Positions 58,504-60,087 of a stretch of 64,000 nucleotides of DNA are shown here, in pieces (the first letter of the stretch is position 1; each line of letters starts with the position of its first letter). Source of the DNA: Lampris incognitus (taxonomy: Eukaryota); the NCBI RefSeq assembly GCF_029633865.1, contig NC_079220.1, forward strand, positions 16,722,216 through 16,786,215, read 5' to 3'. The notes beneath the pieces are model-generated. The model searched no databases. It was not told where the DNA came from and saw only the letters and a list, made by a program, of their open reading frames with translations. The position numbers and the translations under genes were made by a program.

Positions 58504-60087
58504 TACACTGCTCAAAAAAATAAAGGGAACACATAAGCAATGCAATGTAGCTCCAAGTCAATCACACTTTTGAGATATCAACCTGTCCAGTTAGGAAGCA
58601 ACACTGATTTGTGAATCAATTTCACCTGTTGGTAAATTGTCTAATTTCCACCTGGTGGAAATTAGACAATTTGCAAGACAACCCCTATAACAGGAATGGA
58701 TTTGCAGGTGGTGGCCACAGACCATTTGCCTGTCCTCATCTTTTCTGGCTGATCTTTGGTTAGTTTTTCATTTTGCTAGTGCCCTCACCACTAGAGGTGG
58801 CATGAGGCGGTATCTGCAACCTACAGAAGTTGCTCAGGTAGTGCAGCTCATCCAGGATGGCACATCAATGCGTGCTGTGGCAAGAAGATTTGATGTGTCT
58901 CCCAGCACAGTGTCCAGAGCATGGAGGAGGTACCAGGAGACAGGCCAGTACACCAGGAGACGTGGAGGGGGCCGCAGGAGGACAACAACCCCGCAGCAGG
59001 ACCGCTATCTGGTCCTTTGTGCAAGGAGGAACAGGAGGAGCACTGCCAGAGCCCTACAAAACGACCTTCATCAGGCCACTAATGTGCAGGTTTCTGCTCA
59101 AACAGTGAGAAACAGAATGCATGAGGATGGTATGAGGGCCCGACGTCCACAATTGGGGCCTGTGCTCACAGCCCAACACCGTGCAGCCCGATTGACCTTT
59201 GCCAGAGAACATCTTGGTTGGCAGATTCGCCATTGGCGCCCTGTGCTCTTCACAGATGAGAGCAGGTTCACACTGAACACATGTGACAGACGTGAGAGAG
59301 TCTGGAGACGCTGTGGAGAACGTTCTGCTGCCTGCAACATCCTCCAGCATGACCGGTTTGGCGGTGGGTCAGTGATGGTCTGGGGAGGCATATCCTTGGA
59401 GGGCCGCACAGACCTCTACGTGCTAGCCAGAGGTACCATGACTGCCATTAGGTACCGGGATGAGATCCTCAGACCCATTGTCAGACCATATGCTGGTGCA
59501 GTGGGCCCTGGGTTCCTGCTCATGCATGACAATGCTCGTCCTCATGTGGCCAGAGTGTGTCAGCAGTTCCTGTATGTCGAGGGCATTGATGCTATGGACT
59601 GGCCTGCACGTTCCCCAGACCTGAATCCAATCGAGCACCTCTGGGACATCATGTCTCGTACCATCCGCCAACACGATGTCGCACCACAGACTGTCCAGGA
59701 GTTGACCGATGCCCTGATCCAGGTCTGGGAGGAGATCCCTCAGGAGACCATCCGTCGTCTCATCAGGAGCATGCCCAGACATTGTAGGGAGTGCATACAG
59801 GCACGTGGAGGCCACACACACTACTGAGCCTCATTTTGAATCGTCTTGAAGAATTTCCACAGAAGTTGGATCAGCCTATGTTCTCATTTTCCACTTTGAT
59901 TTTGAGTATGATTCTGAATCCAGACCTTAATGGGCTAATGATTTTGATTTCCATTGATCCTTCTGAGGTTATTTTGCTCTAAACACATTCCTCTGTCTAA
60001 TAAATAAAGATTTTCAGCTGAAATATTTCATTCATCGAGGTCTATATTGTGTTTTTAGGTGTTCCCTTTATTTTTTTGAGCAGTATA
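58504..60087 (+). mobile_element. Tc1-like DNA transposon E, structurally complete (~1.58 kb, TA-flanked, ~28-bp TIRs)
   Basis: ta|cactgctcaaaaaaataaagggaacac at 58504..58532; reverse complement gtgttccctttatttttttgagcagta|ta at 60060..60087. Confidence 0.85.
58802..59827 (+). CDS. Tc1 transposase, 341 aa, uninterrupted (DD34E)
   Basis: HTH ([25 protein letters not shown]). D (FTDESRF), D (LMHDNARPH), E ([10 protein letters not shown]). Ends ...ARGGHTHY, a typical Tc1 C-terminus. Confidence 0.85.

Follow-up and report, generated by a model that had tools for sequence, protein, structure and literature searches.

Tc1 of Caenorhabditis elegans is the founding DD34E element of the Tc1/mariner superfamily. 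Closer to the element considered here is DTSsa2, described as the salmon family with the most recent activity, as having open reading frames and as including exactly one member with a 319-aa ORF; the study that described it separated transposon families at a DNA difference of at least 20% (de Boer 2007, PMC2198921). Table 1 of that paper gives DTSsa02 a TA target site, an ITR ending in CACT, an ITR length of about 40 bp and a total length of about 1,600 bp, within the short-ITR subclass (PMC2198921). Sleeping Beauty (SB), Passport and Frog Prince are built differently, with inverted repeats of about 200–250 bp that each carry two transposase-binding direct repeats (PMC2651795, PMC2198921).

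The element studied here, element E, lies at 58504–60087 of the window, by which we mean the whole 64-kb stretch of DNA analysed, and consists of 1,580 bp between two TA dinucleotides, the target-site duplications at 58504..58505 and 60086..60087 (both forward strand). Its left TIR of 27 nt, CACTGCTCAAAAAAATAAAGGGAACAC (58506..58532, forward strand), is identical to the family consensus and has a CACT terminus. The 27-nt right TIR (60059..60085, reverse strand) repeats the left one save for its outermost base, an A at 60085 where the palindrome requires a G, and this end reads TACT in element E only. With 26 of 27 nucleotides complementary and a TA on each side, the near-perfect TIRs described in an earlier, sequence-only reading of this DNA are borne out. 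Across the 64-kb window, the 25-nt TIR core, CTGCTCAAAAAAATAAAGGGAACAC, has exactly two matches, one per end on opposite strands, against 0.00 expected from 100 shuffles. The inverted repeat as a whole spans 58501–58536 and 60055–60090 (36 nt, 94% complementary), and TIR length comes to 27–33 nt, the coordinates above being those of the 27-nt repeat. Longer TIRs, as the flank complementarity AACTA...TAGTT would imply, were rejected because the flanks of related copies are unrelated; this complementarity is probably simply that of a palindromic target site, aacTAgtt, and the predicted empty site is gtgaaaacTAgttacgg. A full-text literature search with the TIR string returned no papers, and the TIR had no matches in viral contigs or prokaryotic genomes, searched as possible vectors or contamination.

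The only long ORF of element E (58802..59827, forward strand) starts with ATG, encodes 341 aa followed by a stop, has no internal stops and ends in ...ARGGHTHY, and so the transposase without stops or frameshifts and with a GGHTHY end that had been read from the letters stands as described. Its catalytic triad is complete as well, comprising D152 (codon 59255–59257), D243 (59528–59530) and E278 (59633–59635), all on the forward strand and separated by 90 and then 34 residues (DD34E). Individually, each is retained by no fewer than 114 of the 119 close homologues and by no fewer than 22 of the 23 distant ones. Pfam searches placed HTH_Tnp_Tc3_2 at residues 67–138 (E=4e-24) and DDE_3 at residues 147–291 (E=4e-16), with several overlapping HTH families, among them HTH_28 (E=3e-9), and a low-scoring PAX match at residues 2–69. 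This is the architecture of Tc1 transposases, an N-terminal bipartite paired-like HTH DNA-binding domain joined to a DDE catalytic domain.

Among solved structures, the best match was the catalytic domain of the active SB transposase SB100X (PDB 5cr4, E=2e-30), in which the FTDES, MHDNA and NPIEH segments of element E align with the catalytic D/D/E of SB, all three residues matched, and GGGSVMVWG aligns with the SB glycine-rich strand; comparison with a known active element had been proposed in the sequence-only reading. Weaker matches included the Tc3 DNA-binding domain (1u78, E=2e-5), SETMAR and Mos1. The AlphaFold2 model built from 31 aligned sequences was of low confidence (mean pLDDT 52, pTM 0.26), and we drew nothing from it about residue R327, discussed below.

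We compared the protein with 5.8 billion others and obtained more than 5,000 matches at E<=1e-10; the top matches are Tc1-like transposases of 75–88% identity, dominated by salmonids and other fish, with genera including Hucho, Salmo, Oncorhynchus, Pygocentrus, Cirrhinus, Takifugu, Polypterus and Xenopus. A search of a representative library yielded 47,536 homologues at E<=0.001, and the exact protein had no match in a collection of 15 billion proteins. Aligned over 94% of the query, the 319-aa transposase A8C5I4 (P0067) of Salmo salar shows 85% identity; judging by its length and source, we take it to be the DTSsa2 ORF of de Boer 2007. Element E and DTSsa02 share the TA site, a CACT terminus, a short ITR, a length of about 1,600 bp and the DD34E signature. 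By protein identity and these Table 1 features, element E is best assigned to a known short-ITR Tc1 family, and is DTSsa2-like. At the DNA level, element E is 81–85% identical to L009–L012, metagenome copies that are the only four loci returned by the metagenome scan.

Closer relatives came from the 90% protein cluster of element E, which holds two very close sequences, P0121 and P0122. P0121 is encoded on a 1,774-bp contig (JAMKCN010000933.1, GCA_025135345.1) of an assembly labelled Pyricularia oryzae, where it is annotated 'transposable element Tcb2 transposase'; the contig, hereafter L001, almost certainly represents contamination of the fungal assembly with fish DNA. P0122 is XP_056158179.1 of Lampris incognitus, the closest named protein to the element E transposase. 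Its RefSeq name is 'DNA fragmentation factor subunit beta isoform X1', and it joins a transposase (about residues 1–333) to the C-terminal part of DFFB, a fusion that is probably a gene-prediction artefact arising from a Tc1 insertion. For DNA comparisons we used L001 and seven contigs (L002–L008) for the sister protein P0123, mostly from TARA Oceans marine metagenomes. L001 is 99.37% identical to element E over all 1,584 bp without gaps, L002–L007 are 96.0% identical and L008 is 94.9% identical.

All eight copies are bounded by TA|CACTG...CAGTG|TA, with TA on both sides amid unrelated flanks, and so provide separate confirmation of where the element ends and of the TA duplication. The left flank of L001 includes 54 nt that are 100% identical to the 3' end of a LINE at 10710–10763 of the window, and because of this identity L001 probably derives from the same host as element E or a close relative. 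L001 represents a second insertion locus, in line with the expectation of near-identical copies elsewhere. The six copies L002–L007 show no differences over 1,585 bp yet have at least five distinct left flanks, which would indicate a very recent amplification of this sister subfamily in some marine host, with the qualification that their identity is that of metagenome assemblies, in which repeats can be merged into one consensus sequence. Because a 99.4% identical copy lies elsewhere and identical sister copies occur in at least five flanks, the lineage of element E appears to have been recently active, a statement that concerns the lineage and not current activity of element E itself.

Two individual copies have features of their own. 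L003 has the right flank of L005 and L006 together with a different left flank, which suggests a chimeric assembly across the repeat. L011, which is 85% identical to element E, starts with TA|AACTG and not TA|CACTG (~149–152); other decayed copies of the family, too, have terminal-base mutations.

Outside the ORF, the 5' UTR contains a perfect palindrome (58634..58672) with 19-nt arms, 100% complementary, around a 1-nt centre. It is present in L001, L002 and L008, whereas the distant copies L009–L012 lack the left arm. Because those copies keep the right arm only, the palindrome is lineage-specific and so is likely to have arisen by an inverted duplication within the lineage; its absence from L009–L012 also led us to reject a conserved functional hairpin. 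A putative TATA box (58686..58693, forward strand) reads TATAACAG here and TATAAAAG in the closest relatives; the motif is not conserved in L009–L012, and its promoter role is a prediction. The 3' UTR contains two overlapping AATAAA motifs (59999..60008, forward strand) that may act as polyadenylation signals.

The surrounding window comes from the genome of a ray-finned fish; it is rich in repeats, Tc1 elements among them, and holds several Tc1-like remnants, including transposase fragments at 24474–25412 (forward), 21624–22427 (reverse) and 46336–46467 (forward). By tblastn, the other Tc1-like sequences of the window have about 27–39% protein identity to element E, in agreement with the proposal that element E belongs to a different family. 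Only one of them is a further full-length candidate, an element at about 15279–16504, roughly 43 kb upstream, with 33-nt TIRs (TACACTCACCGGCCACTTTATTAGGCACACCT, 94%). Its 330-aa ORF (15429..16421) stops at a TGA, at a position that is Arg in relatives, within the C-terminal SMP*RIKAVLKAKGGPTRY motif. Because this stop falls inside a conserved C-terminal motif, the element is not intact, and the proposal of two intact autonomous Tc1 families within 45 kb does not hold.

The LINE whose 3' end matches the L001 flank has an open 1,078-aa ORF with APE (Exo_endo_phos) and RVT_1 domains (10734..13970, reverse strand), and its 3' end at 10710–10763 is followed by a (TAG)n-type tail; it may be young and potentially active. 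A SINE-like repeat of about 320–390 bp is present in five copies of 78–87% identity, at 26285–26691, 27290–27692, 54420–54846, 57643–57964 (forward) and 60408–60804 (reverse). The last two flank element E in inverted orientation about 0.3–0.5 kb away and are the repeats nearest to it; these repeats are unrelated to it. A nested position of element E inside another repeat was rejected, its immediate flanks being unique in the window. Just 3' of element E lie (TCTA)n and (CA)n microsatellites (60340–60385 and 61225–61290), ordinary vertebrate simple repeats.

To polarise the ten differences between element E and L001, we used L002 and L008 as outgroups. Eight were private to element E, one was private to L001 and one was ambiguous, namely the 3' UTR position 59965, which is G in element E, T in L001 and L008, and A in L002. 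Element E therefore carries 8–9 private substitutions and is about 0.5–0.6% diverged from its inferred source, to which L001 would lie close, as it equals the outgroup copies at eight of the ten sites. Four private changes fall in the UTRs, namely 58653 A>T (the centre base of the palindrome), 58691 A>C (in the putative TATA box), 58750 C>T (a CpG transition in the 5' UTR) and 59960 A>C (in the 3' UTR). Three others replace amino acids: 59071 A>T gives Q90H, where 114 of the 119 close homologues have Q and the distant ones vary; 59673 G>A (CGC>CAC) gives R291H, at a moderately conserved Arg (shared by 103 of the 119 close homologues and 13 of the 23 distant ones) that aligns with an Arg of SB100X; and 59781 G>A (CGT>CAT) gives R327H, within the conserved SMPxR motif. 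The two G>A changes in the ORF are CpG changes, bringing the private CpG transitions to three. The eighth, 60085 G>A, lies at the very end of the right TIR, where each of the eight copies L001–L008 has a G.

R327 is near-invariant, being Arg in 22 of 23 homologues of 38–57% identity and aligning with an Arg of SB100X; the equivalent Arg goes unmentioned in the paper on the SB100X structure. Among the 119 close homologues, position 327 carries R in 80 cases and H in 18. The presence of H327 in close genomic copies is as expected of a CpG hotspot in decaying copies; it could instead mean that H327 is tolerated. The sequence-only reading had named substitutions at essential residues as a ground for rejecting it; the catalytic triad is unchanged, and a near-invariant Arg is replaced.

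Tc1/mariner transposases cut the transferred strand precisely where the element ends, which places base 60085 at the scissile junction. With SB, excision footprints were still seen after a point mutation of the terminal CAG on one side and disappeared when both ends were mutated (bioRxiv 10.1101/659086). Because such a one-end mutation still permits excision in SB, the 60085 change is a plausible handicap and not a proven block.

These substitutions bear directly on whether element E is intact and autonomous, as had been claimed. Full length and an open ORF are upheld; autonomy is not, given 8–9 private substitutions that include R327H and 60085 G>A. A fully functional, autonomous element, with neutral private substitutions and Tc1 activity ongoing in this genome, would account for the uninterrupted 341-aa ORF with its DD34E triad and full set of Pfam domains, for a divergence of only about 0.5% from the inferred source, and for consensus sequence at the left end and at 26 of 27 right-end bases; the tolerance of SB excision for a one-sided terminal mutation and the occurrence of H327 in 18 of 119 close homologues also speak for it. 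We nevertheless regard this as unlikely, since the terminal right-end base differs from that of all eight related copies, a near-invariant Arg is replaced, the putative TATA box is altered, the private changes (no synonymous against three replacement, together with CpG-type changes) fit unconstrained decay, and the companion Tc1 that had been called intact has a premature stop.

A doubtful but somewhat more tenable alternative is that element E is impaired in cis and competent in trans, producing an active protein able to mobilise other members of the family or non-autonomous derivatives, while its own excision is poor owing to the right-end mutation. The open ORF with intact catalytic residues and the position of the mutated nucleotide at the cleavage junction are what it predicts, but R327H and the other protein changes, together with the mutated putative TATA box, weigh against it, as does the finding that the 64-kb window contains no non-autonomous derivative with element E TIRs.

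We also compared coding changes within and between subfamilies. Element E and L001 differ by no synonymous and four non-synonymous changes, whereas the L001 and L002 subfamilies differ by 19 synonymous and 10 non-synonymous changes (dN/dS 0.16); the two ratios, 0:4 and 19:10, differ with a one-sided hypergeometric p of about 0.02, while the three replacements among three private coding changes are on their own not significantly different from neutral expectation. Because of the contrast between 0:4 and 19:10, purifying selection appears to have acted along the lineages linking active sources and not on element E after its insertion. This pattern runs counter to a domesticated transposase gene co-opted by the host, with its reading frame kept by selection, a reading for which the long ORF is the one favourable feature: the private coding changes are all replacements and show no sign of constraint, the element still has its two TIRs and TA duplications, near-identical copies exist at other loci, and the element sits among repeats and not in a gene-like context. 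We consider domestication highly improbable.

Taken together, our results make it very likely that element E is a full-length, young, short-TIR Tc1 (DD34E) copy of DTSsa2-like type that is decaying, from a lineage that was very recently active; it is an ordinary copy or sub-lineage of a known kind at the beginning of neutral decay. By analogy with what is established for Tc1/mariner elements, the 341-aa transposase would bind the TIRs of about 27 bp through its bipartite HTH, the D152/D243/E278 active site would cut both element ends, and reinsertion would occur at a TA dinucleotide that is then duplicated. Element E inserted recently, probably at the TA of the palindromic site aacTAgtt, and has probably drifted neutrally since, with a signature of CpG-methylation-type mutation. 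As a decaying copy, it can most likely still encode a transposase-like protein, while the right-end mutation has probably made it less mobile, with R327H and the putative promoter change as possible further handicaps; that it is still autonomously mobile seems unlikely.

In annotation terms, this is a Tc1 (DTSsa2-like) DNA transposon, to be masked or labelled accordingly and not as a host gene, and XP_056158179.1 offers an example of an element E-type transposase fused into a host gene prediction. More generally, an open reading frame and TIRs were insufficient to call a copy autonomous, and it was comparison with sister copies that exposed the cleavage-site base and the amino-acid replacements.

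Only a small number of vertebrate Tc1 elements are known to be naturally active. Because the lineage is young, with 0.5% divergence and identical sister-subfamily copies, the consensus of its sub-lineage is a reasonable candidate for activity. A tentative and less likely reading is that the sub-lineage of element E and L001 constitutes a short-TIR vertebrate Tc1 with native activity, one whose transposition continues in a marine teleost. If so, its consensus could provide a new compact gene-transfer vector independent of IR/DR-type repeats, and element E would be a slightly damaged, possibly still trans-active member.

Set against the described systems, element E resembles Tc1 of C. elegans in its length of about 1.6 kb, its single transposase gene, TA duplication and DD34E triad and its short TIRs without internal direct repeats, but the sequence relationship is distant only, and the C. 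elegans element has a CAGT terminus where element E has CACT. With SB, Passport and Frog Prince it shares a similar protein length and the TA target, and its catalytic domain is homologous to that of SB100X, with the GGGS.M.WG glycine-rich motif and the D/D/E aligned between SB and element E. The IR/DR-like elements of the window encode transposases with just about 27–39% identity to that of element E. Element E differs from this IR/DR group in having terminal repeats of only about 27–33 bp; no inner copy of the TIR core was found within element E at up to three mismatches, and the inverted-repeat arms do not exceed 36 nt, so we rejected membership of that group. DTSsa2 remains the nearest described relative in kind, from which element E differs as a separate sub-lineage marked by the 5' UTR palindrome that L009–L012 lack, and in its host, which is Atlantic salmon and relatives for DTSsa2 and probably a non-salmonid marine fish for element E.
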